The notes under the pieces are model-generated. The model made no database searches, was not told where the DNA came from, and saw nothing but the letters and a program-made list of their open reading frames with translations. This document shows positions 11,740-57,107 of a stretch of DNA of 64,000 bases, piece by piece. Within the stretch, counting starts at the first letter, position 1. Each line of letters begins with the position of its first letter. This stretch comes from Ginglymostoma cirratum. Its lineage: Eukaryota. The position numbers were made by a program, and so were the translations under genes. The stretch spans positions 6,262,772 through 6,326,771 of the forward strand of contig JAHRHZ010000268.1 in the NCBI GenBank assembly GCA_024137785.1, given 5' to 3'.

Positions 11740-11868
11740 TTTCTGAAGAAGGGTCCCGACCCAAAACGTCGACTTTCCTGCTCCTCTGATGCTGCCTGAC
11801 CTGCTGTGTTCCTCCAGCCCCACACTGTGTTATCACTGGCTCCAGCATCAGCAGTTCTTACTATTTCT
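11740..11868 (+). mobile_element. Short Penelope terminal-repeat insertion starting at hammerhead motif
   Basis: ttctgaagaagggtcccgacccaaaacgtc... homologous to terminal repeats at 18177 and 53430; GAAA mutated to AAAA. Confidence 0.75.
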
Positions 11869-13526
11869 GTGTGCTTGCTTCTGTGTTTTTTTCCCTGTGG
11901 TCCCTTCTGTCCTGAAGGCATATCTGCAACATAGCCCCAAGGGGTCTAAATAACTCTGATACCTCACCCAATTGCCCAGGACTCATTTTGACAGCTAGCA
12001 AATACTGGCTGTTCAACTGTAGAGGGATCACGGTCAAGCCTGAATTTTCCCTCAGCTCACGTAATCCCAAGAATTTAACAAATTGCAAATTCCCAGGTAG
12101 CCTACCTAGCACTGCTTTGGCTGAGATTTATCAGCAAAACGCAGATGAAGAATCAGATTCTGGATCTTGCTGTCCAGCTTATCCCTGAAACATATTGACA
12201 TGTTGGGCAGAACTTCCCCCTTCCAAAGAGCGGGTAGGGGTGAGTTGGAGGCAGGGGTGGTCAGTGGATCAGTGGAAAGGGTCAATAACCAGGTGCATTG
12301 ACACTGGAAAATACTCAGCGCATTACCACCGTCTCAGATATCAAGTTCTGAGTGTGGGAAGGCTCAGGTTTGGTCAAATTTCCAAACAGCTGTGAAATGC
12401 TGTAAAGTTGTAACTTAGTGTCAGGGCCTCCTCATGCTTGGCACGCAGTTATTTCAGCTCCAGGCAGGATGAGGAAATGCCAATTCACTGTTAACCTAAT
12501 TGTGGGCAGGCTGCTAGCTTGGGTGGATCAGTGGGCTCTCTTGATCTGCAATAATTTATATAATACTGAGCGATTGGACGGAGGTCAAGCAGATGACACC
12601 TGAGAGTCACCTTTTGCCCTTGCTTCTGACCACCTGCCTCTTCTCTCCTTACGATACCAGCCCCAGAAACCCTCATCCATGCATTTCTTTTTTCCGCTCC
12701 CGATCTCCCGTCTGTGGGTCCAAGGGAGCAGTGTCTGGGCAGCAATCGTGATGCTGCTGATTTCTGGAGATGTCAGCCTCTGATTGGCCAGCAGCCCCAG
12801 ACAGACTGCACCTCTGATCCGGTTGTGTAATTCTGACAGAAAACCTGACAGGAGCCAATCAGCCTACTGATTGCTGTTTAATCGGGCAGGCTTTTAGAAC
12901 AAGATAGGCCTCAGGTTTCTCAAAACAAAAATACCCTGCTTTCACACTTAGTCCATAATGGCAAGATTCCTCCAATTGTTGGGGTGGACCGACTGCACAA
13001 TGTGAAAATAATCTGCTACCTCCTTTAAATCCTCTGCCGTGTCCTGATCCTAACCAAGAAACAGGGGATATCTGGGATCTAGCATCTCTAGTCATCGGAA
13101 AGGTTTGTCCAGATGATCTGGCATATAAATTGCCCTTCCTGGCTATGGTATTCTATGTTGTTTAATGTTATAGATGAAAATAAATAGAACTGATAACCTG
13201 GCTGACGTGATTTGACAATATCTGGCTGTCTTGAAGTGTAGTGCTTTTTTGAAATCTGAGCAATAATAAAACGCTGGCCACATAGAAAGTTCTTCAGATG
13301 CAACACACAGCCTGTTCTCATGCATGCAAGGTCTTTCACAGAGCAATATTAATTAGCACACTTTGTCCTAGACATTCAATGTGTCTGCGAATTGGGGCTG
13401 AGCACTATAATAGACTGAAACAAATATTTGGGAGTTATCCATTAAGCTGCAAGTACATGAGCCGTTCGGCTGTCTTCCAGCCCTCAGAGCGAAATATGCA
13501 GTAAAACTTACACTCTTTTCCCACAG

Positions 13527-13706
13527 GGTTATGTTAAGCAGTGCCGGAAAAGGACAGACATGTTCACAGAGGAGCAGTTACGGACCATCTTTGGGAACAT
13601 TGAAGACATTTACAAATTCCAGAAGAAATTTCTTAAAGGTCTGGAGAAAAAGTTCAATAAAGATCAACCCCACCTGAGTGAGATCGGTTCCTGCTTCCTT
13701 GAATAT
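13527..13706 (+). CDS. ARHGEF4: ARHGEF4 exon: DH domain
   Basis: ttttcccacag| to TAT|gtgagt, 180 nt; [32 protein letters not shown]...[10 protein letters not shown]. Confidence 0.94.
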
Positions 13707-13899
13707 GTGAGTAGTATTGACCCTTCCTCTTTCACTGAGGGGCCAAATGATTTTTTTTTTGTCTAAATTTGATTTCCTAATAGTAGTTCCAACAGAAGTG
13801 TCAGCATCAATTATACTGAAATATAATGAGAAGGCAAGAAATAACTTCCATTTAGAGACTTCAGACACTCACAGTCACTGAAGCTCTATTGAATTGTAC

Positions 13900-14600
13900 A
13901 ACAATAACAATTTCCATTTATATAGCACCTTTTAAATTGTAAAACATCACAAGGTGATCCACAGGGTCAATTATCAAGCAAAGTTTGATAATGAGACACA
14001 AATATTAGAACAAGAATCCAAAAGCCTGTGTAAACGAGACAGGCTTTAGGGAGCATCTTAAAGGAGGACAGAGAGGTAGCAAGGCAAAGGCATTTGGGGA
14101 AGAACTTCCAGACAGGGCCCACAATACGAAAGCTGATAGTAGTGAAATGAAGAAAATCAGGGATGTACAAGAGGCAAAAATTGGAGGTGTGTAGGAATCT
14201 TGGAAGGTAGGACTGCAATTTCCTCCAGAGAAAGGGGAAGGCAGTATAACAGAAGGATTTGAAAACAAGAATGAGAATTGCAAAATTTAGATAGTGCAAA
14301 TTTAGGTCATTTAACCTAGGGCAAATGGGATTTTACAGCAAGTTAAATATTGGCAATACAGTTTTTGAATGTCTTCTGGCTTATAGAGGCTAAAAGATAA
14401 TGGACACCTACCAGAAAGCATTGGAGCAGTCAAATGTAATGGTAATAAAAGTATGAATGAGGGTTTCAGTAGCAGATAGCTGAAGAGGAAGCAGAGTCAG
14501 GCTGTCATGAAATTGGACAGTCTTGTTTGAGAGAATATGTGGTAGCAAATTGGGCTCAGGATCAAGTTAGATGCCATGTTGTAAACAGTCTCTAACAGTA
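13900..14600 (-). mobile_element. L2-like LINE 3' fragment
   Basis: reversed L2-type tail aacaataacaatttccatttatatagcacctt, then purine-rich decayed body. Confidence 0.55.
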
Positions 14601-15468
14601 TCTAAGAATGTTGCCAGGGTTGAAACTTTATGGAACGCTTACAACTGTCTTGAGGAAAAAAATGTGACAATCAATTTGAAAATGAAGAGCAATAAAGTAA
14701 ATGAAGAGATCACATGTTTAGATGTTATATTTGGGATAAATGTTACATTAGTATAATATATAGGATATCAAAAATGCAGAATGGTTACAGTACAGAAGAA
14801 AGCTAATTTCATTACAACATAAAGGAGTAATCCCATCAATGCTGATTGCCCTAACAACACTGGGCCTTTTTTCATTTGTTTTGAGCAAGGAATTATCTGA
14901 GCGTGCTTCTATTTATCTTGCTTTTTTGCTTTACCATTTCTAACCTCTTCTCGTAGAGCTCCTGGGTTATCTAGTGCTACAGGCCTTATTGTGATTCCTA
15001 GCTTGGGAGTCCACCCTCCTTTATTGAGCAGCCAACATGGAGTTACTTAATTTGAGCTCCACTTCACATGAGGTTGCATTGACACACATTGACCTAGGGT
15101 GTGAGCTGTTCCACCATACTGTGGAAAGAGTACCAGGTGCCTAATCCTACACCCTCCCCCACCTCACAAACATCACCACAACCAATCGAAATCACCAGCC
15201 AGCAAAACCCTGGGCCAGCTTTTCTCCTTTAACCTAGCAACACTGAAATCAAATGGAGATCCTGCCTCTGGGTCTGGCTGATATATGTTAACCCTGCTCT
15301 GTGCAGCACTGCAAACCTCAATACCTGCAAGCTGAGGATTTTGTGTTTTGGCGGTATGCGCACACAGGACTGAAAATGGGGCTGGTAACCAAAGTCAGCC
15401 CAATTCACACATCAGTTTTTGCCCCGTGGATCAGTTGCTGACCTTCCTGTGCTGTTTATTCTTTCCAG

Positions 15469-15701
15469 CAGACAGATTTCCAGATATACTCTGAGTACTG
15501 CAACAACCACCCTAATGCTTACACTGAACTCTCCAAACTCATGAAGATCAACAAGTACGTGTACTTTTTTGAGGCATGTCGCCTGCTTCAGAAGATGATT
15601 GATATCTCATTGGATGGCTTTCTGCTCACACCAGTCCAGAAGATCTGCAAATATCCACTTCAGTTGGCAGAGCTGCTCAAGTACACCAATCCAGAGCACA
15701 G
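15469..15701 (+). CDS. ARHGEF4: ARHGEF4 exon: DH core (absent from ORF track)
   Basis: ctttccag| to AG|gtaagg, 233 nt, ends phase 2; [17 protein letters not shown]...[45 protein letters not shown]. Confidence 0.94.
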
Positions 15702-16514
15702 GTAAGGGCTAAATGACACTGTGCAAATAATCCTTAGAGATTAAGTAAACCAGAACACTCATTGAGTGAGCCAAAGTGGAGAATTTCGAATCAAGTGACT
15801 GGGTTTTCATTCTCCTGTTGTCAGTCAGAGCTGTGCAGATAAACTCACAACCAAAGCAAGACATTTCAGATGAACAGCTACTTTCCAAACTCAACACAAC
15901 TGGCCTGATGCAATTGCAGAGAAAGAAGAGAATGGGTAGGAGGTCAGATGATTTTGGGCTGGCCTTGTGTACTTTCAATGACACAATTCAGGAATGACAT
16001 TGCTTCAGATGAGACAATTGTTTGCCAATGTTGCATTTCACATGCAGGGATGAAAATGGAGAAACACACTCGAAAGTTGGATCACCAAGGTTTTGAACTT
16101 TCTTTTTTGTAAACTCACAACTGCGTGCATTTTGAATTCTGCCCTCTAGCCTCATGTGTGACTAACACTGATTCTGACTGGAGACCAATTTGGGAAGTGT
16201 GACACCCCATCCAGGACTTTGCCAGCACACTGGAGATAGGCTTGAAGGTGGGAGACACAGGAAAACACATTCAGAAAGAAGCTTGACACAGTCATGCAAC
16301 CACACCATTCTCCCAGTGGCAGGAAATGTTGAGGCCTGACCTGAAGTGAAAAGCCAAATTAAATAATTAAAATAGCATGTCCCTTTGAGTGTGGAGGCCA
16401 CCATGTGAGGTGGTCTTCTTGTTTCTGGGATTGGTGGGAGATCAGGGTCCGGGTTTTACTAAAGGATGCCTCCTTGGTGACAATAGTTCTATTGTCACTG
16501 CTGGCTCCTATTAG

Positions 16515-16880
16515 GAGAGGCAATAGCCCAGTGGTATTCTCACTAGCCTATTAATCCAGAGACCCAGGTAATGTTCTGAAGACATGGGTTTAAATCCCAC
16601 CATTGACAGATTGTGGAATTTGAATTCGGTTTTTAAAAAAAAATCTGGAATTAAGAGTCTATTCATGATCATGAAACTCTTGTCAATTGCTGAAAAAGCT
16701 TATCTGGTTCACTATTGTCCTTTAGGGAAGGAAAGTGTCATGCTTATGCGATCTGTCCTATATGTGGCACCAGAGCCACAGCAATGTGATTGACTTTTAA
16801 CTGCCCTTTGGGCAATTATGGTTGGGAAATAAATGCTGGTCTGGTCAGCGACATCCACATCCCATGAATGAATAAAAAAT
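16515..16880 (+). mobile_element. tRNA-derived SINE with LINE-derived tail
   Basis: A-box-like tagcccagtggt, B-box-like gggtttaaatccc, tail shared with LINE end at 1-175; reversed relatives near 35165-35490 and 37200-37450. Confidence 0.65.
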
Positions 16881-17329
16881 AATTAGCAGGGCCTACCTGT
16901 CTGATCCTGGCAGTGGAATAAATTTATATCATCCCTGTGTGGGTGCCTCAAATCTTTCCCCTTGCAGCCTCAGCAATAGCCATCTCTATCGGATGACTGT
17001 CCAGCAGTTTTGAGAGCTAGATGCCGTCTAGAATTGGATGCAGGCTTGGTGATTGTCTCCTAATTGACCATGTGGTCGCATTGCCCTCCCATACAGGCTT
17101 CAGATCTGCAATTGGGCCCAATGTCAGGACTTATCCTGATCTTTGAATCCATTAGGATTTTCTTGAAATATTTTCTTGAATGGAGAGAGACAAGGAAATG
17201 TGGAAGAAAAACTGGATTTGGGTGTATACTAACTAATTAAACGCTGGTGTCAATCAAAAAGGCTGATGGAAAATTGGATCAAATCTTGAAAGTGTGCAAA
17301 AGTGTGGGCGTTACAGCTCAGTTATAATG

Positions 17330-18140
17330 TTTGAGATGTAATTAAATTGAGGTGTTTAAATTGTTAACATAATTCAATAGGGTGGATAAAGAGAATTTGG
17401 TTCTTGTACTAGAGAATCCAACAAAAGGATGTATAACTCTCCAATTAGAGCTATGCGCAAAATTAGGCAGCACTATTTCAAACAATGGGCAGTAGAAATT
17501 TTGAACTTTCCTTTCCAAAGGGCTATGGATGCAAGGTCAATTGAAACTCACAAGGCTGTATACAATAATTTTTCACTTTGTAAAAAATATCAAGAGATGT
17601 TATGCAATGCCAGATGAATGAACTTGAATTATAGATCAGCCATAATCAAGTTGAATGATATAACAGAGTGAAAGAGTTGAATGGCCTATTCATGTTCCTC
17701 GTAATTATTTGGATCGTGTGGTTCATTAACGCAAATGGATTAAAGAAGCCACATTTCAGTGATAAATACTGGTGACTAACACAGACCTGTTGGTTCACAG
17801 ACATCCAAGTGTAATATTGTTGTGGTTAAACATGGGATTTAAGTACAGACTGAGAAACGGAAAGGAAGAAGGTATAGAGGAAATGTGAGGAATAAGTTTT
17901 TCATTCAGAGGGTGGTGGAAATCTAGAACTCACTGTCTGTAGGGGTGGTAAAGGTAGAAACCTTTGTAACATTTAAGAAGTATTTAGATGTGTATTTGTG
18001 ATGCCAAGGCATACAAGGTTGTGGATCAATTGCTGAAAAATGTGATTAGAATAGTTAGGTGGTTGATTTTGACTGGTGCAGAGGTGATAGGCCAAAAGGT
18101 CCGAGAGCCTTTTTTCTGTTCTGTAGATCTCTTTGTCTTT
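17330..18140 (+). mobile_element. Two decayed CR1 3' fragments
   Basis: CR1 3'-end motifs at 17630-17700 and 17890-18140. Confidence 0.6.
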
Positions 18141-18176
18141 ATGAGGTATTTATAAACAAAACAGTAACTTGTCAAG

Positions 18177-18305
18177 AGATAGTAGGAACTGCCAATGCTG
18201 GAGTATCTGAGATAACACAGTGTGGAGCTGGATGAACACAGCAGGCCAAGCAGCCTCAGAGGAGCAGGAAAGCTGACGTTTCGGATCTGGACCCTTCTTC
18301 AGAAA
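18177..18305 (-). mobile_element. Short Penelope terminal-repeat insertion with hammerhead, TSD-flanked
   Basis: TSD TAACTTGTC(A/G)AG at 18165-18176 and 18306-18317; minus strand CUGAAGA-A-GGGUCCAGAUCC-GAAACGUC. Confidence 0.85.
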
Positions 18306-18429
18306 TAACTTGTCGAGTCTGTTTTTCTGTGTCCACAGGCTCAGGCAATCTCTAAATTTCTTGTGCGTAAAGTTGATAATAGGATGAAAAAATCTTAAAT
18401 TCCTCAATATGGACATCCCTCATCATCTG

Positions 18430-18815
18430 CTGTAAAGAAAGGTTGGATAGGCTGGGCCATTTTTCACTGGGAGGTGACCTTACAGAACTTTATAAAATCA
18501 TGAGAGGTATAGACGGAGTTAATGGTAGGTGTCTTTTCCCTAGGATGGGGGCATTTCAAGATCGGGGCACGTTTTTAAGGTGAGAGAACAGAGATCTAAA
18601 AAAGATATGAGGGACAAATTGTTTGCACAGAGGGTAGTTTGTGTATGATGTGAGCAGAATTACAACATTTAAAAGATATTTGGATAAGTGCATCAACAAG
18701 AAAGGTTTGGAAGGATGTGGGCCAGAAGGTAAATGGGACTAGTGTAGTTTGGGATTATGTTCAGCATCGACTGGTTGGACCAAAGGGTCTGTTTCCGTGT
18801 TTTATGACGCTATGA
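18430..18815 (+). mobile_element. CR1 LINE 3' fragment
   Basis: ggtgaccttacagaactttataaaatcatgagaggtatagac (GDL-E-YKIMRGID-like) and ggaccaaagggtctgtttcc tail. Confidence 0.75.
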
Positions 18816-19229
18816 TGTGTACAAAAATTGAATAGTATTTCAGGAAAGTGAAACCATCGTAAATCACAGAAACACACTATAATGATAGGCAAGACCTTAA
18901 TTCCTAAACCTAGAACCTAAATTGGTTGCATTATCATACTCATGCATTTGTCCAAACAAAACCAATCAAAATAATTTTGTAAGATTTAGAATGTTTAATA
19001 TCCTGCTATCTATGGTTCATAGATTGCAAAGTTGAAATAGGTGGAAGGAAAAAACAATATAACTACTGGCAGCACGGATGGCCTCGCACAAATAAAGTGA
19101 TTTACACCAGATCAACGAGGTGGCAGTTTTCCATTGAAATCATTCAGATTGTATTTGCACAGGGTTTGCTTCTATTATCGTGTACCTATTCCCTCCTGTA
19201 GTATATGATCATTAATATCTTTCATCCAG

Positions 19230-19359
19230 AGATTACAAAGATGTGGAGGCTGCGTTGAATGCCATGAAGAATGTTGCCAAGTTGATTAATGAGCGCAAGA
19301 GGCGGCTGGAAAACCTCGACAAAATTGCCCAATGGCAGAGTTCAATCGAGAATTGGGAG
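19230..19359 (+). CDS. ARHGEF4: ARHGEF4 exon: end of DH domain
   Basis: ttcatccag| to GAG|gtagga, 130 nt, phase fits previous exon; (R)[43 protein letters not shown]. Confidence 0.94.
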
Positions 19360-20704
19360 GTAGGAGCCTGGACTCTGTGCGTCATCATCACACTTTTTGT
19401 TTATGTGTGGTTATTTGGTTATTTAGTCCAAGCTGACTATACCGGATCCAGTTCTCAGCCAAAGCTGTTCACTCTAACCCATTTGCCTGTCCTTTCCTCG
19501 ATCAAATATTTATTGATTTTTCCCTTTATATGCTGTTGGAGTTTCTACAAAAGTTGCCCTGTGTGGTAAAGCATTCTATGATCCACTATACTTCTCAGTG
19601 CTTATAACTTGTCCTTTTCTTGCGTCGGTGATAAACTGAATTTAAAGGCCAGATTGCCTACTGGGAAACTGGGTCAGACCGCAAGAAGTAAATATATTTA
19701 CTGGCTAGCCTAGCACCAGCTCACTGATCGCGTCTCAATTTTGCTTCTTCTGTGCAGCCAACACACATACTACTCCTGGTATGGGAGTAGAGTGGCAGCT
19801 AGTGGGAGATCATGACTGTACACCATATAGAATACTAACATGGGTAGGCCTTGGCCTTTGCTGAGAACTGGATTCTTTATTGGGAAGATCCTGACAGGAA
19901 TCCAGTGTGAATACATCCAGCGACCTCCAGCCCAAGGAATCAATTCATGGCTATGTTGTCAATGTAAGATTGTGAGGAAGTCAGCTACTTTAACCAAGGA
20001 AGAAACTGCCACATTTGTCTCCTTCTCATTAATTCATGTACTTACTGAAACAGTTTTTCATAATTGCCATGACAAGACTTTTCAAAACTTTGCTACCTCT
20101 CTTCCAGTGATTTTAAAGAATATTTCACCTTTTTTTTTTCTCATAACTAAACTCCTGAGAAATCCACATAAATACAGATTCCATTTATCTCATATGGAGT
20201 AGATAATCAATGCTTTCAAGTAAGATTGGACACTGCCTGGTTTTGAGTTGAGCAGTTTAATTTTTCCAGTAGTCTGCCAGAGCTTCTCACCGTACAAACT
20301 TGACGTGTGAAGATTGGCAAAGTGAAAAACCATATAATCTCCCATTATGTCATGGAGACATTATTTATTAAAGGTTTTCAGTGAATTTGCATTCAAACCC
20401 ACCTGGCCTAACCATTCTGGAGTCCTGGGACTTGGAAGTAAAAAGTAGAAACCTACGTGGTACTCCCTAAGTTGTGATAGCTAGCAGTCAACAATTCTGT
20501 CTTTCTCTTCAATGCCAACATGTGAAGCACACAAAAGTTCTTGTTTTGATGAGACCACAAACATAGCAACATTCATTTGGAGGTTGAAATTAAGTAACAC
20601 CAAAAGATTTGTCTCCAATTTCCACAGTTTACGCAGCCCGCCTGCAACACTGATAATACTCGAATGTAAGAAACAAAGCTCCTTGCATGATGGAGTTGAT
20701 TAAG

Positions 20705-22841
20705 ATTGTAGACTTGCTCGCTGAGCAAGTGTGTTTTGTTGTAGATGTTTTGTCACCCTGCTAGGTACTGTCATCAGTGCGCCTCTGGTGAAGCATTGGT
20801 GTTCCGTCCTGCTTGTTATTTATATGCCTCAGTTTGCTGGGGTGGTTGGCATCACTTCTGGTTCTGTTTTTCAGTGGTTTGTTTTTTGGGTCCAGTTCAA
20901 TGTGTTTGTTGACGGAGTACCGGTTGGAATGCCAGGCCTCCAAGAATTCCCTGGCATGTCTCTGTTTGGCTTGTGCTATATTGGATGTGTCATCCCAGTC
21001 GAATTTGTGTTCTTTTTTGTCCATGCTTATTAAGACCAATGAGAACTGGTTGTGTCTCTTGGTGGCCAGTTGGTGTTCGTATATCCTTATTGTCAGTTTT
21101 CTTCCTGTTTGGCCTATGTAATGTTTCTCACAGTCCATGGTATTTTGTACATTACATTAGTTTTATTGGTTGTGGGTATGGGATCCTTTACGTTCATCAG
21201 CAGCTGTCGCAGGGTGGTTGTTGGTTTGTGGGTTATCCTGATACCTAGGGGTCTCAATAGTCTTGTGGTGTCTCTGATGTGTCCCTGATGTACGGTAGGG
21301 TGACTAGTGTGTCTGGCTGTGTTGTGTCTTCTTGTTGTGGTCTGTCACGGAGGTAACAGTGGATAGTGATTTTTGGGTGTCCATTCCTTTTAAAAACTCA
21401 TTCAAGTGCTCCTGTTCTGCTTTGCGCAACTCTGGATTGCTACAATGTGTTGTGGTCTGTTTGAATAATGTCCTGATTCGGCTCTATTTACGGGTGTTGG
21501 GGTGGTTGCTGGTGTAATTAAGTATCTGGTCCATTTGTGTGGTCTTTCTGTATACGCTAGTCTGGAGTTTGCCGTTGTTCTAATGTTCTACTATTATGTC
21601 GAGGAAGGGTAGTCAGTTATTGTTCTCTTCTTCTTTTGCGAATTTTATTCCGGTGAGGATGTTGTCTATGTGTTGGTGGGTTTCTTTTATTCTTGTGCAT
21701 TTGATAATCATGAGGATGCCATCTATGTACTGGACCCAGAGTTTGGGTTGTATAGTGGGAGTGCTGTCCATTCTAACCTTTGCATTACTGTCTTTGCAAT
21801 CAGTCCTGATATTGGGGATCCTATTGGGGTGTTTTGTTGATTTGTTTGAATATGCGGCCGTTGAAGGTGAAGTGGGTCATTGGGCACAGATCCAGCAGTT
21901 TCACGGTGCTGTCTTGTTGATGCTATTGGTGTCATGGGGTGCCTGCCTTCCTGATTCATCCAGCAGTGTGGCAATTGTCCCTTTGGCTCGGTCGGTGTTT
22001 ATGGATGTAACGTGCTGTTACTTTGAAGGACATCACTATCTCATCCTCTTCTATTTGGTGTCCTTGATAATGTCAAGGAATTCTTGGGAGAAGTGGATGG
22101 AGTGCATAGTGTTGTCAACTAAGTAGTTCAGTTTCTGTTGTAGTTGTTTGGCTAGTCTATATGTCGGTGTGCCTGGTAGTGATACAATGGGTCTGAGGGG
22201 AGCCCCTGGCCTCTGTACATTGCAGAGCCCATAGAAGCAGGGTGTGTTGGATCCCTCTGGCTTCACTTCTTTTGGTAGCGTGTCTTTCTGATATCTCCTG
22301 AGTTGTGTAATTTCTTCAGGGTTGTTGTAATCTGGCACTCTAACTGTGGTGTTGGGTCTATTGCCATCTGTTGGTAGGTGTCAGAATCTGCTAGTAGTGC
22401 GTTAGCTTTTTGGATGTACTGGGCCCTATTAAGGATTACTGTCTTGTGTCCTTTGTCCACCGGTAAGATTACAATGTTTCTGTCCTTCTTGAGTCTTTCC
22501 AGGGCTTTCTTCTCTTCTGTGTTCAACGTGTTCTGCTTACCTTCTCTGCTCGCTGTTGGGACCATCATCTGTCTGATGGTCTGATGTATTTCCTTCGTGA
22601 GTCTGTTGTTCTTTATTGTCAATTCCAGTGTAGCCGGGAAGTCAGTTTTTTTAGCGTCCCTGTAGTTACAATTCAGTCCACGTATTAGGACGGTCTTCTC
22701 AGTGTCTGTAAGTGGTTGGTCTGAGATGTTCTTGATCCATATTTCCGTGTTGTCCATATCGTTGTTGTGGGTGAGTTTGGAGAGTTTTCCTTGTAGGGCT
22801 TTTTTTTTTGTTCTGGTCTTTTGCTGTTGTATGGTGATTGA
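20705..22841 (-). mobile_element. Penelope-like element family B: decayed RT + GIY-YIG
   Basis: minus ORF pieces LPVDKGHKTVILN, PLRPIVSLPGTPTYRLAK, HYIGQTGRKLTIRIYEH...AREFLEAWHS; imperfect 15-bp TSD at 20690-20704 and 22842-22856. Confidence 0.9.
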
Positions 22842-23717
22842 ATGGAGATGATTTAGTTCACATCTGGTTAAATACTTGCCTTAACTTTTAAATCTCCTAC
22901 ACCTACGTTCTAACAAGGAAACGGAAGGTGCAGTGTTGTGTTAAGAAATTCAGTTTTATTGCTGAAAATGGCCAGCACTGGAAGTGATATAACACTTGTT
23001 CTCGATCATTAGCGCAATGCTCTATTTTAAGAAGAGTGCTCAAATCTAGTTTTTTATACCACGATAGATGCACCTTTCTGTTGCTTAATGTGCTAAATGC
23101 TTGGAAGCTACAATAAAGTAGAACATATTTTGTTAATTCCACAATTCATTGCTGGTTATGCAATTACCATGTAGCAGCAGGGAGGCATAACTAACACCAC
23201 TCAATAACAATATAAATCTTTCGGAGATAAATGACCTACAGAATGTGCTTGAGCATGTAATTTAGTTTCAGGGTGCAGGAAATTGATCACTGAAAAAAAA
23301 TGTTACTGATTCGTAATGCTGATAAATGAGATACCTGCCAGCAGGGAAGTGGTATTGATTACGGAGGAGTTGGCACATCTTTCCAGCATTTTTAACATGA
23401 TGCATGTGATTTCAATTTTACATTGTGGCCGAATGGGACGGCATTAGTGAAGTGCCAGCTCTTATGCAAAATGCTCACTTTAGCGGCAACTGAAAGATGA
23501 TGATTCAACAGTTATGACTGATGATCTAAAGTAGGGCATTAAGCCAGTTGGCGCAAGCAGCTAAAGGACATTTACTCTGAAAAACCCATTTAAAAACATG
23601 CCTGCTCTCTTCCAATTTTCACTTAGCATGAACTGTGATACGATCACTGGAACAATACATTCAGTTGAAGAAAGGCTGCATATTTTCCCCACCCCACCCA
23701 AATCAACTTTACAGTTT

Positions 23718-23898
23718 GGAACAAAATCAAAGTTACTGGAAAAGCTCAGCGGGTCTGGCAGCATCTGTGAAGGAGAAAACAGAGTTAACGTTTCGGGTCC
23801 GGTGACCCTTCCTCACAACTGTTCTGAGGGTCACCGGACCCGAAACATTAACTCTGTTTTTTTGTTTTTGTACCTGATTTGCAGCATCCACAGTTTTT
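23718..23898. mobile_element. Palindromic double-hammerhead Penelope-derived short element (family D)
   Basis: inverted arms centred near 23820; TSD AATCAACTTTA(C/A)AGTTT at 23701-23717 and 23899-23915. Confidence 0.85.
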
Positions 23899-24084
23899 AA
23901 TCAACTTTAAAGTTTAGTGGCACTTGTAATTTTTGTATCATTTTTGACAGTTTTTAATACTGTCATAAACAGTATGCATTCCATCATATTGTATGTTGGA
24001 GGCACAAAGGCTAAGTAATCCTATTTATGAGGGATCTCTCGCAAAGCATTTCAAAATGATCCTTACCAGATCTTCCTTTTCTAG

Positions 24085-24216
24085 GGTGAAGATGTTTTGG
24101 CCCGAAGCTCAGAGCTCATCCATTCTGGTGAATTAACAAAGGTCTCCCAACCTCAAGCCAAGAGCAAACAGCGAATCTTTTTCCTCTTTGACCATCAGGT
24201 GGTCTTTTGCAAGAAG
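24085..24216 (+). CDS. ARHGEF4: ARHGEF4 exon: start of PH domain (absent from ORF track)
   Basis: ccttttctag| to AAG|gtaaaa, 132 nt; [44 protein letters not shown]. Confidence 0.93.
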
Positions 24217-24384
24217 GTAAAAAATGTCATCTGCTATATGTTAGCCTTCACACTTCTTTGAATTTCTTACAGAGATCATCTCAGCAATTTAAAACAAAAG
24301 GAATTACCTCATGAGAAAAGATCAAGGTCTATGCAGTTTCCCTCCCATCATCCTGGTTGTCAAGTGAAACAATGATAATTGCAG

Positions 24385-24740
24385 AACTGTTACAGCAAAA
24401 AAGGAGGCCATTTGGCTTATTCTGCCTGCACTGGTTCTATTACCTAGTGTCAAATTCCTGCCTTTTCCCCTTACCTCTGCACAGCATTTCAAATAATTAT
24501 CCAGTGCCCTCTTGAATGAGTCAGTTGAACCTGCTTCCACCACATTTCCAGGCAGTGCATTCTGTACCCTAACCAGTTTGTGTGTGAAAAAGCATTCTCG
24601 TTTCTCAAATCACCTTTGCTTCTTTGGCACATCACTTTAAATCTATGCTGTCTCAGTCTTTTTTTCAAAACAAGTTAAAACAGCTTTTCCTTATCTACTC
24701 TGCCCAGCCCATTCACTATTTTGAGGACCTCTGTCAAATC
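24385..24740 (-). mobile_element. CR1 LINE 3' fragment
   Basis: reversed CR1 tail; MVEAGSTDSFKRALDNYL peptide; related copy at 25640-26220. Confidence 0.7.
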
Positions 24741-25639
24741 TAAAATCTCTATGAAATCTAATTTGATAGCAGCTAATCACTATTGGTTAGGGTCAGACAT
24801 AAGGCAAAGAAAACTGGTGTCAATGCAGTATCGAGCTGGAGAACACAGCAAGTCAAGCAGCACCAGAGGAGAAGACCCAAAACATTGACTTTCCTGTTCC
24901 TGTGACACTGCTTGACCTGCTGTGCTCTTCCAGCTCCACACTGCATTAACTCTGACCTAACATTTGCAGTTATTGCTTTCTTTGCAAAGAAAACCAGAAT
25001 GTGTATAAGACTACAGACCTAAAATCCTTTTCTTTATAGCCGTACTACAGTAAAGAAGAAAGGACATGCTTTGATATTGCATGTTTCATGTCCTCCACAG
25101 TCAAGTAATACTTTGGAATCATTGTCACTGGTGTAACAGCTAATTTGAATTGATTTATTACTGTCATGTTTACCGGAGTACAGTGAAAAGTATGGTCTTA
25201 GATGCTTTGCAGGCAGATCATACTAAACAAGTGCATCAGGGTAACAGAACAGATACAATGCAGGACACAATGTTACAGCTGCCGAGAAGGTGCAGAGAGA
25301 GATTGACATTAGCATCTCAGCGTAACCACTAAGGTCCACAGTCCACCAGGCAAGCACTGCACTGATTCATGATCTGGGGAAACTGGAATATAATGGCAAC
25401 CAAAGTTGCTGTTCAATCCAGGCCAGTATAGCAAGGCGCAAAAGCGTGGTATTAACGAGAATGATGGTCAGCTGATTAGTAAAAGTCTCAGTGGGAAACT
25501 TGCTCAGAGCACAGTTTCACTGATAGCTCCATAATAGCACTGCTTACTACTGAATGCTGAAATAGATGGATATGAAAAAATGCCGTAAAAACATAGAAAA
25601 TAGATTTTCTGTCAGTTTTAATGTTACCGAGACGTTTAC

Positions 25640-26220
25640 AGAATCACAGAGTTGTTATGACACAGAAGGAGAGCACTGAGCCTATTATGTCTGCACAAGC
25701 TGTCTGACCATTTTGACTTAGTGCCAGACTCCTGTCTTTTATTGTTTCTATTTGAATAGTCATCCAATATCCTCTTGAATGCCTTGGTTGAACATTTCTC
25801 AAGCACGTTTCCAGGCAGGGCATTCTAAACCCAGATCAGCTGCTGTGTGAAGAAGTTTTTCTCGTCTTTGTAATTGCTTCTTTTGCAAAACACTTTAAAA
25901 ATGTGTTCTTAAACCATTTATAAACAGGAACGTTTTCTCCAATCTACTCTTCCAGACAAGACATGATTTTGAAAACTTGTTTCAGATTGTTCCTTAACCT
26001 ATCCTAAATAAATAGACCAAACTACCTTCATGGCTGAAGTATCTCATTCCTGGAGCCATTCTCTCTGCATTCTTGCCAGTATATTTGCATCCTTCATACA
26101 GTGTGGTGCCCAGGACTCAGTACAACACCTCAGCTAAGGTCAAACCAGTGACCGAAGTGGGTTGAGCATGACCTCCCTGCTCTTGTTGTACTCTATGCCC
26201 CTAATAATGAAGGCCAGAAT
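25640..26220 (-). mobile_element. CR1 LINE 3' fragment
   Basis: similar to 24385-24740, plus gtgtggtgcccaggact...tacaacacctcagc RT C-terminal motif. Confidence 0.65.
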
Positions 26221-26424
26221 GCCTAGCCAAAAATGCCACCATCAAACCTATTCTTTGTTCCTGTCTTTTCTAACCAGAAATATTCACACCAGTATTGTCC
26301 GCCTTGAGGCAGGTATCTGATACACCCCACAGCATCATCATCCCAAAAGGCAAACTGTGCCAGTAACCCCCAAACTTATTAACTATACTCTGCACATTCA
26401 CATACATGTAACATAACCTTGACT

Positions 26425-27130
26425 ATTTTTTATTCACTATTGGAATGTGGGCATTGCTGATTGACCCGCATTAATTGCCTGTCCCTTGTTGCCCTTAAGA
26501 AGTTGGTGGGGAGCTGCATTCTTGAACTGCTGCAGTCCACATGCTATAGTTGAACCACATGCCCTTGAATGTCAAGGGCCAGAGACTAGATCGTCTATTT
26601 TGCCACTCGGCATTTCTGGCAGAAGAATGTTTCAGCTAGATCTTTTACACTGATCTGCTGGGCTCTTCCATCATTGAGAATGGGGATATTGAGCCTCTTC
26701 TTCCAGTGAAGTTATAATTGTCCACTGTTCATGAATGGGTGTGGCAGGACCAGACGGCTTAGATCTGATCCATTGGTTATGGGATGACTTAGCTCTGTCT
26801 GTCACTTGCAGTGGCTTCACCAGTTGACACCTCATTTTTAGCGATGTCTGTTGCTGCTCCTGGCATGCCCTCTTTCACCCTTCATTGAATCAGGGTTGAT
26901 CTGGTTTGATGGTAATAGTTGAATGGGGGAATATGTCTGCCCACGCGGTTGTAGATTTTGTTGGAATACATTTCTGCTGCTGTTGCTGGCCTACAGTACT
27001 TCATGGATGCCCGGTCTTGAGTTGCTAGATCTGTTCAGAGTGTATCCCATTTAGCACAGTGGTAATGCCACACAACACAATGGAGGGTCTTCTCAATGTG
27101 CAGGCGTGACTTCTCCCGGAGGACTGTGTG
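26425..27130 (-). mobile_element. Internally deleted LINE (tail as at 1-175)
   Basis: reversed tail at 26430-26560 joined to decayed upstream LINE sequence. Confidence 0.55.
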
Positions 27131-27652
27131 CACTCATTCTAGTTCCCACAGCCGAGTTGAGTTTGTTTAAACCCTCCCATCAGCAAGTTATTATGACCTG
27201 TCGTAATCAGGATGTTCTTATGCTGTTGATGTTTGACAATTACACTGAAGAAGTGCCTTTAAATGTCTACCTGTTCTTCTTTATCTAGTTAGTTCTGCAG
27301 AACCGGTTAGCCGTGCGTTTAGTTGATCAGGCTTCAAGTTCTGAAATTTCCATTGAAAACCTTTACTCCTGTCAACAAACTTCTTCTTATTTAAAATCCT
27401 CCTTGAAATCTGTTTCTTTGGCTGGATTTTTAGCCGCCGTTCATGGCATTTCCAGCTTTATTTTGACATCTATTTGTAAGTGCCTTGGAACATTTTTCTG
27501 TTTTAGAAGTGCTTTACAACTAGAAGCTGACGTTTTTATTGTAGTACAACAAAGTGCACTGACTCTTCTTTGTAAAATATGTTGAAATTCTAATATTATA
27601 TGGGGTGAATGGGTCATAATCTGTTCAGTTTTATAATGTGGCACTTTCATAG

Positions 27653-27896
27653 GACCTCCTGCGTCGTGACATCTTGTACTACAAAAGCAGGATCGACACA
27701 GACAGCATGGAAGTGGTGGATGTCGAAGATGGGAAGGACAAGGACTTCAACATCAGTGTCAAGAACGCATTCAAACTTCAAAACAAGTTCACAAATGAGG
27801 TCCACTTGTTCTGCGCAAAGAAGTTGTCGGTCAAAGAACGTTGGCTTCAAGCCTTTGAAAATGAACGAAAACAGGTTCAACTTGACAAAGAGACAG
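27653..27896 (+). CDS. ARHGEF4: ARHGEF4 exon: PH domain
   Basis: actttcatag| to G|gtaaaa, 244 nt, ends phase 1; [42 protein letters not shown]...[18 protein letters not shown]. Confidence 0.93.
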
Positions 27897-28460
27897 GTAA
27901 AAGTCTTGTTTTGGCAGGATGAAACAATGTTACGGAGGCTACTGGTGTCAGCTGTCCGTCTCCTTGAATACGAATTCTAAAATACCAGCTATGCGCATGC
28001 CACCATTAGTGTGCCTTCCTATTTCTTCATTCGTGGGATGTGGTTGTCTCCGGTTAGCCCAGCATTTATCACTCAGCCGTAATTGTTCATGAGAAAGCAG
28101 TGGTCATCTGTCTTCTTGAATTACTACAGTTGATGTGGAGTAGTTCCATCTGCAGAGCTGTTAGGACAGAAAAGTATTCTGCCTTCTACAAGGATGTGGA
28201 CTTCTGCCTGGCACGCAATATTGTTTTCCACAAATATCAGGAGCTGATACGCATTACTCCCTGCTGACTCACACACACCACCATCCCCCCCCACGTCCCA
28301 CTCACGCTGGAGTTGCTGCTGTGCTGTAGTGTGCACCTCTCCCTTCCCAACTGGCCTTTACACCAGAGATAATAGGTACTGCAGATGCTGGAGAATCCGA
28401 GATAACAAGCGTGGGGCTGGATGAACACAGCAGGTCAAGCAGCATCATAGGAGCAGGAAA

Positions 28461-28496
28461 ACTTGACGTTTCGGGCCTAAACCCTTCATCAGAAAT
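28461..28496 (-). ncRNA. Minimal type I hammerhead ribozyme motif
   Basis: minus AUUU-CUGAUGA-A-GGG-UUUAGG-CCC-GAAA-CGUC-AAGU; stem I AUUU/AAGU, palindromic ACGU stem III. Confidence 0.75.
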
Positions 28497-29091
28497 GGGG
28501 GAGGGGAAGAGGGTTCTGAAATAAATAGGGAGAGAGGGGAGGCGGATGGATAGAGGAGAGGATAGGTGGAGAGGAGAGGATAGGTGGAGAGGAGGCAGAC
28601 AAGTCGAAGAGTTTTTTTTTGTAGAGCAGTCATTTCTCATTTATTAATTGGTATCCATATGTTGTGTTCACATTAAGAACTCAATATAGATTAACACAAA
28701 ATCCTAGAATCATCCAGCCCTGAAAGAGACCATTCACTCTGTGTCATTTCTTCTGAAAAGTAATCCTTTAGGTTCTAATCTTCCAATCTTGCCCTGTGAA
28801 CTTGCAATTATTTCTTCAAGTGTTTGGTCAATTCCCTTTCTATTCCCTACCATTGAATCTGTATCTACCCCGCTATGAGGCAATATATTCCATATTCACC
28901 CACTCGTTGCATAAAAATGTTTTTCCTCTTGTCCCATTTGGTTCTTTTACCACTCACTTAAACCTGGGTTGGTGACTCACTAGCTATTGGAAACAATTTT
29001 CTCCATTGATGTGACCAAATGTGTCATGATTTTAAACACCTTCATCAGGCCACTTCTTAACCTTCCCTGCTCCAAGGAGAAAAAGCTTAGT

Positions 29092-29259
29092 CAACGTTTC
29101 GGGTCCAGTGACCGTTCCTCAGTTCTGAGGAAGGGTCCCCGGACATGAAACGTTAACTGTGTTTTCTCCTCCACAGATGCTGCCAGACCTGCTGAGCTTT
29201 TCTGGCAACTTTGTTTTTGTTCCTGATTTACAGCAGCCGCAGTTCTTTTGGTTTTTATA
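29092..29259. mobile_element. Palindromic double-hammerhead element (family D) inside the captured segment
   Basis: aacgtttcgggtccagtgaccgttcctcag-tt-ctgaggaagggtccccggacatgaaacgtt; TSD AAAAAGCTTAGT at 29080-29091 and 29260-29271. Confidence 0.85.
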
Positions 29260-29374
29260 AAAAAGCTTAGTATTTACTAGAGATAAAAGGTACTGCAGAT
29301 GCTGGAGAATCCGAGATTACAAGCATGGGGCTGGATGAACACAGCAGGTCAAGCAGTATCATAGGAGCAGGAAA

Positions 29375-29410
29375 ACTTGACGTTTCGGGCCTAAACCCTT
29401 CATCAGAAAT
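29375..29410 (-). ncRNA. Minimal type I hammerhead ribozyme motif
   Basis: identical to 28461-28496. Confidence 0.75.
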
Positions 29411-30755
29411 GGGGGAGGGGAAGAGGGTTCTGAAATAAATAGGGAGAGAGGGGGAGGCGGATAGAGGAGGCAGACAAGTCGAAGAGGCGGGGATGGAGCC
29501 AGTAAAGGTGAGTGTAGGTGGGGGGGTAGGGAGGAGATAGGTCAGTCCAGGGAGGACGGACAGGTCAAGGGGGCGGGATGATGTTAGTAGATAGGAGATG
29601 GAGGTGTGGCTTGAGGTGAGAGGAAAAACAGGTTAGGGAGGTGGAGATGAGCTGGGCTGGTTTTGGGATGCGGTTGGGGGAAGGGGAGATTTTAAAGCTT
29701 GTGAAATCCACATTGATGCCATTGGACTGCAGGGTTCCCAGGCTGAATATGATTTGCTGTTCCTGCAGCCTTCGGGTGGCATCACTGTGGCATTGCAGGA
29801 GGCCAAGGATGGATATGTCATCTGAGGAATGGGAGGGGGAGTTGAAATGGTTCGCGACTGGGAGGTGCAGTTGTTTGTTGCGAACTGAGCGCAGGTGTTC
29901 TGCAAAGCGGTCCCCAAGCCTCCGCTTGGTTTCCCCGATGTAGAGGAAGCCACAATGGGTACAGCGGATGCAGTATACCACATTGGCAGATGTGCTGGTG
30001 AACCTCTGCCTGATGTGGAAAGTCTTCTTGGGGCCTGGGATTGGGGTGAGGGAGGAGGTGTGGGGGCAGGTGTAGCACTTCCTGCGGTTACAAGGAAAAG
30101 TGCCGGGTGTGGTGGGGCTGGAGGGGAGTGTGGAGCGGACAAGGGAGTCGCGGAGGGAGTGGTCCCTCCAGAAGGCAGATAAGGGTGGGGAGGGAAAAAT
30201 GTCTTTGGTGGTGGGGCCTTTACACCATATCATTTGTTAGGCTTCAGCGCAGAGTGCGATAGATTTATATATTTATCCTGACAGAGCAATCGGTTGTTAA
30301 CTATCTGAGGGGAGGTAATAAGCCATGACCCCTGACTATTTATGCTGGCTGAATATAACTGCAGCTAAGGGCCTTGTGGTGCAGTGGTACTGTCCCTACC
30401 CCTGAACCAAAAGACCTAGGTTTAAGTACCACCTGATCCAGAGGTGTATAATGACATCTCTGAACAGGTTTATTAGATTAAATTTTTAAAAATGTAAAAT
30501 ATTATCACTGCAGCTAGTGTGAAGCCACTTTACAGAAAGGATCTCAAACAACCCATTAAATAGTCCTCAGTTGTATGTTATTAGAGAGCTGGGAGGACGG
30601 TTTGTTCTGCACACATGCACTCAAGCATGCATAGACCTCCAGGTTGTCAATGACGGAGTGATAGAAAACAACAGTGTAGCTTGGAACTAGCAATATGCTC
30701 ATTCTAGAGTGCTGCATTAGTGCATAAGCTTCTGAAAATAACACAGTAAAACATT

Positions 30756-30976
30756 GAGATAACAAGGTGTAGAGCTGGATGAACACAGCAGGCCAAGCAG
30801 CATCAGAGGAGCAGGAAAGCTGATGTTTCAGGCCTAGACGCTTCTTCAGAAAATGAAGGGTCTCGGCCGGAAACATCAGCCTGCCTGTACCTCTGACGCT
30901 GCTTGGCCTGCTGTGTTCATCCAGCTCTAGCACCTTGTTATCTCATTCTCCAGCATCTGCAGTTCCTACTGTCTCT
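30756..30976. mobile_element. Palindromic pair of Penelope terminal repeats
   Basis: about 95-bp inverted arms meeting at cttcttcagaaaatgaaggg; perfect TSD CACAGTAAAACATT at 30742-30755 and 30977-30990. Confidence 0.88.
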
Positions 30977-31268
30977 CACAGTAAAACATTCCACAGCTGG
31001 GTTCAACCTTGAGCAATTGTGAAGGCCTCCTAGTTATTCCTCATGGAAATGCCACACTCCACCACAGATGAATCAGTCTCTGAGCTGTTACCAATACCAC
31101 TGAGATCCGTCATTAATATAATTGTGTTGTTTTGTTTTTCAGAATTAACACTTCGACATGTAGTTCACATTGTTCGCTTGCCTTCCACAGATTCTGTCCA
31201 TCGTTATTGAATGGGACATATTTGATGGGACAATTGTGCTCACATGTGATATTGTGCTTTTTCTCAAG

Positions 31269-35983: not shown

Positions 35984-36310
35984 GGGGCGGCACGGTGGCT
36001 CAGGGTTAGCACTAATGCCTCACAGCGCCAGGGACCCGGGTTCAATTCCATTCTCGGGCAACTGTCTGTGTGGAGTTTGCACGTTCTCCCCGTGTTTGCG
36101 TGGGTTTCCTCCGGGTGCTCCGGTTTCCTCCCACAGCCCAAAGATGTGCAGGCTAGGTGGCTTGGCCATGCTAAATTACCCGTAGTGTTCAGGGATTTGT
36201 ACATTAGGCGGGTTATGGGGGGGGGGGGATGGGTTTGGGTGGGTGCTCTGAGGGTCAGTGCAGACTTGTTGGGCCAAAGGGCCTGCTTCCTCACTGTAGG
36301 GATTCTATGA
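35984..36310 (+). mobile_element. V-SINE (HE1-like)
   Basis: tRNA head ggcacggtggctcagggttagc...gggttcaattcc, V-domain ggagtttgcacgttctccccgtg...ggtttcctccgggtgctccggtttcctcccacag, CR1-like tail. Confidence 0.9.
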
Positions 36311-41459: not shown

Positions 41460-42070
41460 ATATTTTCCTAAAATTTTAAAGCTTGTTGTATAGAAAATTT
41501 ACATTTTCAGGTAATATAGTCAATGTTGTCCAGTCCACTGCTTCAGAAAGTGGCTCAAGTTTTAAAATCTGTTTAATTAACCTCATTTCAGGCCAGAAAA
41601 TTACTTATTAACATTAAATAAGTTATACTAAATTGATTGTACCCACTGGATAAATGTTGGTTGCGAACCTGTGTTGCCTTTGTATATTTCCAGAGATACA
41701 GTCTATATGGATTTTGTAAGTGTATTATAGTTGTAGCTCTAAATGGTAATGCCTGCCAGCCTGAATTTTCCTGTTATAATCCCAGCAATGACCGTTCCAG
41801 CCTCTAGTACAACTTCGTGTGCAAGAGGGCAGAATGATCTGGTACAGCTTCCGGTGTGAATTTGTGTGAAAGTAATCAACTGAGTTTTCTTCAGTGATAC
41901 AAAATGGCCTGCTAGGGTTGCCAGTTGAGTCAGTGGAACCTCAAATTAATTGCAATACAACTTTATATCGTATTTACACACAGAATTGTAAACAGGCACT
42001 CAATGTGGGATTCTAAAACGAAGCCACCTTTAGTTATCCAGTAGAAGAAAGTAACAGGAACATTGTTGAG

Positions 42071-43193
42071 AGAGATAAAAGGTACTGCAGATGCTGGAGA
42101 ATCCGAGATAACAAGCATGGGGCTGGATGAACACAGCAGGTCAAGCAGCATCATAGGAGCAGGAAAACTTGACGTTTCGGGCCTAAACCCTTCATCAGAA
42201 ATGGGGGAGGGGAAGAGGGCTCTGAAATAAATAGGGAGAGAGGGGGAGGTGGATAGAGGATGGATAGAGGAGAGGATAGGTGGAGAGGAGGCAGACAAGT
42301 CGAAGAGGCGGGGATGGAGCCAGTAAAGGTGAGTGTAGGTAGGGGGGTAGGGAGGAGATAGGTCAGTCCAGGGAGGACGGACAGGTCAAGGGGGCGGGAT
42401 GATGTTAGGAGATGGGGTGTGGCTTGGGGTGAGAGGGAAAACAGGTTAGGGAGGTGGAGATAAGCTGGGCTGGTTTTAGGATGCGGTTGGGGGAGGGGAG
42501 ATTTTGAAGCTTGTGAAATCCACATTGATGCCATTGGGCTGCAGGGTTCCCAGGCTGAATATGATTTGCTGTTCCTGCAGCCTTCGGGTGGCATCACTGT
42601 GGCATTGCAGGAGGCCAAGGATGGACATGTCATCTGAGGAATGGGAGGGGGAGTTGAAATGGTTCGCGACTGGGAGGTGCAGTTGTTTGTTGCGAACTGA
42701 GCGCAGGAGTTCTGCAAAGCGGTCCCCAAGCCTCCGCTTGGTTTCCCCGATGTAGAGGAAGCCACAACGGGTACAGCGGATGCAGTATACCACATTGGCA
42801 GATGTGCAGGTGAACCTCTGCCTGATGTGGAAAGTCTTCTTGGGGCCTGGGATTGGGGTGAGGGAGGAGGTGTGGGGGCAGGTGTAGCACTTCCTGCGGT
42901 TACAAGGAAAAGTGCCGGGTGTGGTGGGGCTGGAGGGGAGTGTGGAGCGGACAAGGGAGTCGCGGAGGGAGTGGTCCCTCCAGAAGGCAGATAAGGGTGG
43001 GGAGGGAAAGATGTCTGTGGTGGTGGGGTCTGACTGTAGATGGCGGAAGTGTCGGAGGATGATGCATTGGATCCGGAGGTTGGTGGGGTGGTATGTGAGG
43101 ACGAGGGGGATTCTTTTTTGGTTATTGTTGCGGGGACGGGGCGTGAGGGATGTGTTCCGGGAAATGCGGGAGACACGGTCGAGGGCGTTCTCG
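42071..43193 (-). mobile_element. Young 5'-truncated Penelope family A copy (GIY-YIG + terminal repeat)
   Basis: near-identical to 29279-30214; VYCIRCTRCGFLYIGETKRRLGDRFAE...RLQEQQIIFSLGTLQPNGIN. Confidence 0.92.
42167..42202 (-). ncRNA. Minimal type I hammerhead ribozyme motif
   Basis: identical to 28461-28496. Confidence 0.75.
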
Positions 43194-44293
43194 GCTTAAT
43201 ACCAGATCAGGTTGAGTTTAGTGTGAATCTGGATCACCCTATTACATTCTCTAGGAAAATGTGATAGGCTAACATTACTATATTCTCTCAAAGTGAATGC
43301 TGAGTCGCAATATACTGTCTTTTTCCTTTTGTAGTGCTTGATGTATGGATCAGCCCCTCTTTTAAGAAATACATTTTAGAATTACAAGTTAAAAATGTCC
43401 ACATTACTTTGGGGTTCTGACAACAAGGTGATGTCCTTTAACATTTTCCTGAGTGACTGCATTTTAACTTTAAATAGTAAACATTTCTAGATAATTACAC
43501 AATCTCAATTTAGGGAAACATTGCTGAATGGTTGATAATAAAAGGCCTTTAAGGGGTTTGATAAAGTACACATAAAGAAAGGTTTTCCACTGGTGGAAGA
43601 ATTCAAAGTCAGGGCTGATAAACAGAAATAAATTCAATAATGAAATCTGGAAAGATGGCTTTACCTAGAGGAAGTGGTTAGAATGTGAAGCTCGCTATTA
43701 CATAGGTACATTTAAAGGTAAGCTACACAAGGAAGCAATGAACAGTAGGAAATAAACAATAACTGCAGAAAAGTTATACCAGACTCAAAACGTTAACCGT
43801 ATTTCTCTCTCCACAGATGCTGCCTGCGGAGTTTCTCCAGCATTCTCTGTGTTGGTTTCAGATTTCCAGTATATGCAGTACTTTGCTTTCAAAGAAAAGT
43901 AGGATATGTTGATAAGGTCAGATCAAGCAGGAAGAGAGGAGGCTTTTGTGGATGATATCAGCTGAAAAGCTTGATTCTATGCTGTAACTGTTAGGCGAAA
44001 ATTAAATTGAATTCAATCTTCCCATGCTGTTGATCTGAGACAACATCCACTAACTTCCCCAGATTAAAGAAATATTAGACTTTTTTTTTCCCCCACTTAG
44101 GAGATTGCCAAATACCTAATCCTGGCTCCATTTAAGACAGAATCTGGTAGAATGCAGTCAAACTATTTTCAACTAAAAAAAGTTCAAGCTACAAGAAAGA
44201 ATTAGTCCACATGAACATTGAGGCCCAGAAACCAATGTTATGCACATCCTCCTCTGTGTAAGTTCTAACCTGTGGCTCTCTTTCTTGCCTCAG

Positions 44294-57094: not shown

Positions 57095-57107
57095 TCCATG
57101 GAGAGAC

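Follow-up and report, generated by a model that had tools for sequence, protein, structure and literature searches.

When L1 elements mediate 3' transduction, the element, its downstream flank, a host poly(A) signal and an A tail are copied to a new site, and the A tail adjoins the target duplication and is where priming takes place. In the rotifer Adineta vaga, Pen1_Av carries host spacers of 0.9–1.5 kb before its 3' repeat, and a host gene framed by Pen3a repeats and an 8-bp duplication has a known empty allele (Arkhipova et al. 2013, PMC3846280). Other unrelated sequences lie there between solo repeats, read-through transcripts and template jumps have been proposed for other inserts, and the choice between a sense and an antisense template was left undecided (PMC3846280). 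The text of that report makes no mention of a poly(A) signal or an A tail at the rotifer junctions, although its figures and supplements could show one. In a 2024 in vitro study, which reported internal priming but no later steps, a Poseidon enzyme primed internally, gave a weak band that was ascribed to 3'-end priming and required ORF sequence downstream of its start site (PMC11167929). Moreover, homology-free template jumping has been reported for non-LTR reverse transcriptases (PMC8857657), and in the literature examined, PMC11167929 included, no demonstration of such jumping by a Penelope-like enzyme was found. Either a template switch or RNA ligation has been invoked to explain the 3'-LINE-1 chimeras (bioRxiv 10.1101/2025.02.02.635956).

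The locus described here lies in a 64-kb window, the whole stretch of shark DNA that was analysed, in which plus-strand exons at 8746–27896 encode SH3, RhoGEF and PH domains. In the intron that follows the PH exon ending near 27896 of this gene, which we take to be ARHGEF4/9-like, an antisense composite unit of 1.85 kb is bracketed by a single 13-nt target duplication (28353–28365 and 30215–30227). Read along the minus strand, it is composed of the following features.

30215–30227, no strand: target-site duplication at the element's 5' end; 30215–30216 (CC on the minus strand) possibly belong to the element, as a 2-nt microhomology
29487–30214, minus: 5'-truncated Neptune-type body with 3' untranslated part; GIY-YIG domain, no reverse transcriptase
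29279–29486, minus: first terminal repeat (rep1), with the standard 3' end of the family; a hammerhead-like motif lies at 29410–29375
29080–29271, plus: older terminal-repeat-only insertion of family D, another Penelope-like family; element at 29092–29259
28852–29091, minus: decayed LINE relic, presumably CR1-like, recognized by profile score
28621–28851, minus: rest of the cargo, with no strong match elsewhere in the window; contains the poly(A) signal
28640–28645, minus: AATAAA, the sole A[AT]TAAA from the element's 5' end to the A run
28612–28620, minus: run of nine A (A9), beginning at a CA dinucleotide and adjoining the second repeat
28365–28611, minus: second terminal repeat (rep2), 247 nt, with the standard 3' end; hammerhead-like motif at 28496–28461
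28353–28365, no strand: target-site duplication at the element's 3' end, sharing base 28365 with the end of the repeat

The original prediction had named the duplication, the body, the repeats, AATAAA and A9, and every one of its coordinates was confirmed, as was the order of AATAAA, 19 nt, A9 and repeat. Its estimate of about 660 nt of unrelated DNA, made of an old CR1 piece and a family D element, comes to 658 nt (28621–29278), with both layers recovered.

The body matches the Rhincodon typus protein P0002 at 92%, with the alignment beginning at 30215, the 5' junction of the unit, and its minus-strand reading frame is open over 30236–29568. A C-x4-C-x2-C motif (CNRRKCYTC, ~30092–30066) stands ahead of a GIY-YIG domain at ~29981–29748 (PF01541, 26.3 bits against a cut-off of 22.6, E 9.5e-6), where CIRCTHC precedes LYIG; two cysteines between GIY and YIG are a feature of the C-terminal endonuclease in EN+ Penelope-like elements (PMC8557442). 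Since the motif C-x2-5-C-x2-C upstream of GIY-YIG marks both Neptune and Nematis and does not separate the two (PMC8557442), it is from vertebrate distribution (bioRxiv 10.64898/2026.07.22.740005) that we infer a Neptune-type rather than a Nematis-type Penelope-like retrotransposon. The reverse transcriptase region of the unit is missing through 5' truncation; in P0002, the part upstream of GIY-YIG scores 22.7 bits for RVT_1, below the cut-off of 29.6, which P0017 exceeds. A sister copy (42071–43194) differs by 13 substitutions in 721 columns of body and untranslated part, so the subfamily is young, and the closest named proteins to this copy, among 16 matches, come from Rhincodon typus (92%) and Stegostoma tigrinum (87%), which makes a carpet shark the probable source of the DNA.

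Other members of these families are found in the same window. The sister copy, taken over 42071–43216, is ~98% identical; its 3' end adjoins one copy of a 6-nt candidate duplication, whose other copy is separated from the body by ~17 nt of unassigned sequence. An older Neptune-type copy at 53428–56223 keeps most of the reverse transcriptase, carries a 3' fragment in inverted orientation at its 5' end and contains a SINE-like insert (54922–55223) that is also present at 35984–36308. At 56229–58270, a Penelope-like cluster combines a Neptune-type body (57149–58270), a family D inverted pair and a piece of a more distant family (56229–56755) that is related to 20747–22880.

Rep1, rep2 and the sister copy all terminate at the same base. 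Rep2 begins 115 nt upstream of its candidate start at 28496 and holds a tandem tract at 28552–28594 with 2.4 copies of an 18-nt unit, and in rep1 TATTTATTT lies at 29441, 31 nt ahead of the candidate start at 29410. The minimal type I hammerhead core, as described in PMC4209133, has 13 matches in the window versus 0–2 in 20 resamples, and 87.8% of the cells pair, compared with at most 50% when the pairing is slid. The predicted hammerhead fits the minimal type I pattern; scanning the window with Rfam models at their gathering thresholds gave 0 matches, and covariation over 12 copies was not above shuffles. Folding energies of the repeat ends, with z-scores of −0.37, −0.23 and −1.59, are uninformative. 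Non-LTR retrozymes are tandem arrays of non-coding units that each contain a hammerhead (bioRxiv 10.64898/2026.07.22.740005); this identity was rejected for the unit, in which unique DNA lies between the two hammerhead-like motifs, at a distance of 914 nt, and a coding body is present. A Penelope tail was also rejected: rep1 and the copy at 18.2 kb are similar for 30 nt beyond the 3' end, but this segment overlaps target duplications at both loci, that of family D at the former and that of the second copy itself at the latter. In each of the three young copies, a minus-strand frame runs without a stop across the entire terminal repeat (28365–28640; 41966–42385), and a protein search with the frame through rep2, aimed at repeats that continue into an ORF start, returned 0 of 344 shark-protein candidates at E 0.1 or better.

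The cargo is itself layered. A profile made from 8 other LINE relics in the window scores 29100–28852 at 47.7 bits (E 1e-14), the best of 200 shuffles reaching 3.4, and the relic is presumed to be CR1-like from C-terminal protein motifs. On both host flanks this profile gave no score, and the missing CR1 continuation there is weak evidence, such relics usually being truncated. The family D piece consists of head-to-head arms with hammerhead-like cores and has its own 12-nt duplication (29080–29091 and 29260–29271), so it was inserted into the relic before the capture. Judged by these layers, the cargo is old genomic DNA with a nested history. No second copy of it occurs within the 64-kb window, and it was presumably brought in from elsewhere as the flank of a donor element.

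AATAAA (28645–28640) is the first poly(A) signal downstream of rep1, from which it is 633 nt away, and the sense strand has no A[AT]TAAA in the element, the sister copy or the earlier part of the cargo. The distance of 19 nt from AATAAA to the tail and the start at CA are canonical spacing for polyadenylation. One of the 18 A runs of at least 9 nt in the window (both strands) has AATAAA 10–30 nt upstream, against a background of 1.9% of positions. We read A9 as the remnant of a poly(A) tail, one short enough that it could be genomic, and an RNA intermediate that would have ended at a host poly(A) site is supported by this arrangement. The junction of A9 with rep2 has zero microhomology. A literature search confined to the main text of openly accessible papers brought up no earlier description of a junction between poly(A) and a terminal repeat in a Penelope-like element.

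The target duplication, GGCCTTTACACCA, has just its two occurrences when both strands of the 64-kb window are searched. Three of its nucleotides are ambiguous, namely CC at the 5' junction and T at 28365, leaving 10 nt unambiguous; the prediction was right to place the 13-mer at both outer ends and undercounted its overlap with the element, given as 2 nt. Among 3000 random boundary pairs, none shared a word of at least 12 nt. Six sub-units (rep2 with or without A9, body plus rep1, the poly(A) unit with or without its A, and the cargo) were tested across their ends, and the shared word was at most 5 nt, none having a duplication of its own. The same scoring at eight other loci gave nine values, the family D copy in the cargo included, of 12, 6, 9, 7, 14, 7, 11, 5 and 5 nt, in which lengths of 5–7 nt are within chance level, and the 13 nt found here fall in the range of 6–14 nt of candidate duplications for other copies in the window. 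The composite structure is real, and because the duplication surrounds just the whole unit and no sub-unit has one, a single insertion event is supported for the unit, which is known from one locus (n=1).

The two repeats differ by exactly four substitutions, at +54, +86, +93 and +124, all of them in the distal 132 nt when positions are counted from the candidate starts 28496 and 29410. In their upstream part, a net difference of 39 nt in the tandem tract needs at least two length changes. The prediction of about four substitutions and a repeat-length indel is therefore borne out for the substitutions, not for a single indel. The number of substitutions is uninformative, since 3.7 are expected from age alone; it is their pattern that carries information. 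At +86 and +124, rep1 and the unlinked sister copy share a derived T, whereas rep2 has the base of older copies, as do 7 of 8 outgroup rows at +86 and 5 of 6 at +124 (the misaligned row 56140–56221 being omitted from the count). The chance that back-mutation restored both older bases is about 0.004 or less; +86 is a CpG, and the remaining three CpGs are unchanged in each of the three copies. Upstream of +1, rep1 and rep2 share two states, of unclear polarity, against the sister copy. The bases at +86 and +124 support the view that rep1 and rep2 come from different templates, an argument based on two sites, one of which is a CpG. A local tandem duplication of rep1, or the copying of one and the same repeat twice, was rejected because of the older bases of rep2 at +86 and +124.

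Taken together, the unit was probably made in one target-primed insertion by a Neptune-type Penelope-like enzyme, which would have primed at a normal Penelope 3' end, copied 247 nt and then switched to a sense read-through RNA at its poly(A) end. As the signal pattern suggests, the sense transcript of a donor would have run 658 nt into host DNA and been polyadenylated at the first AATAAA, reading through because the donor element had no poly(A) signal of its own. The endonuclease would have nicked the intron, and synthesis would have started at an internal 3' point of the template repeat, in keeping with the fixed end of the copies. After 247 nt, just past the pyrimidine-rich tandem tract where the junction is seen, the enzyme would have left this first template, which could have been a separate RNA or the 5' repeat of the read-through RNA itself, and jumped without homology onto the poly(A) end of the donor's read-through transcript. 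Copying would then have proceeded, presumably in this order, through nine A, the flanking host DNA, the 3' repeat of the donor and the endonuclease region up to a stop at 30214, and joining by a 2-nt microhomology would have left the 13-nt duplication. Of the template-switch reading first put forward for this locus, the single insertion, the poly(A)-ended RNA intermediate and the two template repeats are upheld, with the jump as their simplest account. The product is a dead antisense copy in an intron, with no evident function. The suggested re-mobilisation is without support here, since the unit has no reverse transcriptase, the window contains no second copy of the cargo and AATAAA precedes the last repeat; in addition, for an enzyme of the Poseidon clade, RNA had to extend downstream of the start site (PMC11167929).

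The outer duplication would be explained equally well if the A9–repeat junction had been made by an earlier jump elsewhere and the finished composite had then reached this site by a single ordinary round of copying, off a transcript that read through AATAAA. Terminal repeats have been concluded to suffice for mobilisation in trans (PMC3846280), but this course requires an extra event and the read-through of a signal that had been used before, and the second cargo copy that might attest to it is absent from a window of just 64 kb; we regard it as unlikely. It is also conceivable that no jump occurred, two copies of the family having stood 660 nt apart at the donor, the second beside a genomic A run, and given rise to one read-through transcript. 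Such a donor would account for both the different repeat lineages and the outer duplication, it resembles the capture between repeats proposed for rotifer Pen1, and AT-rich targets are favoured by Penelope-like endonucleases (PMC11167929). It would, however, leave to chance both A9 at the junction and AATAAA 19 nt upstream of it (18 runs in 128,000 positions, times 1.9%), and the transcript would have to ignore the sole signal present, which makes this origin quite improbable.

Events that took place one after another at this site, either two insertions on the two sides of native cargo or a short copy followed by a poly(A) retrocopy exactly at its 5' junction, stand a slim chance of being the explanation. 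The family is abundant in the window, with 20 profile matches to its terminal region, and a Poseidon enzyme has been proposed to nick its own repeat (PMC11167929); yet the outer 13-mer would then be a coincidence, with sub-unit duplications of at most 5 nt and 0 of 3000 random pairs at 12 nt or more, and, as weaker evidence, the CR1-like relic continues in neither host flank. An identical DNA product would result from two RNAs ligated before reverse transcription, as for U6/L1 chimeras, which is the alternative named for sense-oriented L1 chimeras (bioRxiv 10.1101/2025.02.02.635956). Against this, the junction lies ~146 nt upstream of the hammerhead cut predicted at 28465, so the ribozyme would not have made the junction end, and the cut was rejected as its source. 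Furthermore, the 3'-OH of a poly(A) tail is not the end that RtcB uses as a substrate, which also counts against ligation, and we consider it very unlikely. As for an assembly artefact in which two loci were joined through the repeat, tandem structures of Penelope-like elements do trouble assemblies (PMC8557442), but a mis-join would not create a duplication unique to the outer ends, and the A9 junction is not placed in shared sequence, so that an artefact is extremely improbable.

The jump onto a poly(A) end might also be seen as one case of a more general process. Tentatively, and with more doubt than confidence, it may be suggested that Neptune elements replicate by a strong-stop transfer like that of retroviruses, and that this locus records a mis-transfer onto a poly(A) end. 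The RNA would start at +1 in the 5' repeat, priming would take place 132 nt downstream, and run-off at the RNA 5' end would make a transfer to the 3' part of an RNA obligatory, while short solo copies starting from about +1 would be aborted first products. TATTTATTT is found 31 nt before a CCATTT motif in rep1, rep2, the sister copy and the older copy at 53.5 kb, which belongs to an older subfamily. A spacing of 31 nt is typical for TATA and initiator, and the promoter reading of TATTTATTT is that of a motif match; the promoter of Drosophila Penelope is reported to be internal and TATA-less (PMC2377424), so a TATA reading would not be general. The profile of the terminal region has 20 matches, 16 of them without an upstream body, of which 10 begin at −9 to +9, 5 at +17 to +48 and rep2 alone well upstream; for family A, 6 of 10 body-less arms begin at −1 to +9. 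In these counts, three short copies belonged to the training set of the profile, and the ends of family D may reflect loss of homology. All four substitutions between rep1 and rep2 are distal to +1, as the strong-stop model would have it, and the ORF sequence that the Poseidon enzyme requires downstream of its start exists just at the junction of 5' repeat and ORF (PMC11167929). On the other hand, rep2 starts at −115, so two transfers would be needed, and such a cluster of starts would also arise from a short master copy or if synthesis stalled at the hammerhead. If the model is true, the capture of host DNA between repeats would be a built-in by-product, and poly(A)-to-repeat junctions would be scattered genome-wide.

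Solo repeats of ~132 nt are found at 11738, 18306, 30852–30853, 48602, 60920 and other places, and mostly begin within a few bases of the candidate start, just before the hammerhead core. At 30742–30990, 500 nt from the composite, two short repeats form a head-to-head pair with a 14-nt duplication, and further inverted pairs are present at 23701–23909 (11 nt), 48512–48699 and 56865–57100.

The effect on the host looks neutral, the cargo being old repeat debris placed antisense in an intron. The value of the locus is that of a mechanistic fossil and of a pointer to a genome-wide count of poly(A)-to-repeat junctions, as the sense AATAAA and A tail between two repeats point, for one event, to a polyadenylated sense read-through RNA and a homology-free jump.

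In its form, the unit combines features of several described systems. Like 3' transductions, it has a poly(A) signal and an A tail following non-element DNA downstream of an element; unlike those of L1, it has 247 nt of terminal repeat between the A tail and the target duplication, and its poly(A) unit alone lacks a duplication. Like the 3'-LINE-1 chimeras (U6/L1, Alu/L1), in which the copy of another RNA is fused 5' to a truncated 3' end, it has a single duplication around two sense-oriented parts, each derived from a template; it differs from them in the class of the enzyme, in priming at an internal repeat site and in an upstream RNA that would be a read-through transcript of the same family (bioRxiv 10.1101/2025.02.02.635956). 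With the partial-tandem pseudo-LTR insertions it shares two head-to-tail 5'-truncated units with the same end position (PMC8557442, PMC11167929), which normally abut with the longer unit downstream, whereas here 658 nt and A9 lie between them and the short unit is downstream. In Pen1_Av and Pen3a, too, a Penelope-like element and a 3'-terminal repeat enclose host DNA that is unique, and unrelated DNA lies between direct repeats inside one target duplication; these are rotifer elements of the Penelope/Poseidon group for which the polarity of the template was left open, while in the shark unit a complete repeat of the body's own precedes the cargo and a sense poly(A) junction is present (PMC3846280). 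The transport of host DNA noted in the original prediction is not new: as described in the rotifer report, the outcome is of a kind known since 2013, to which the poly(A) junction is an added feature (PMC3846280).
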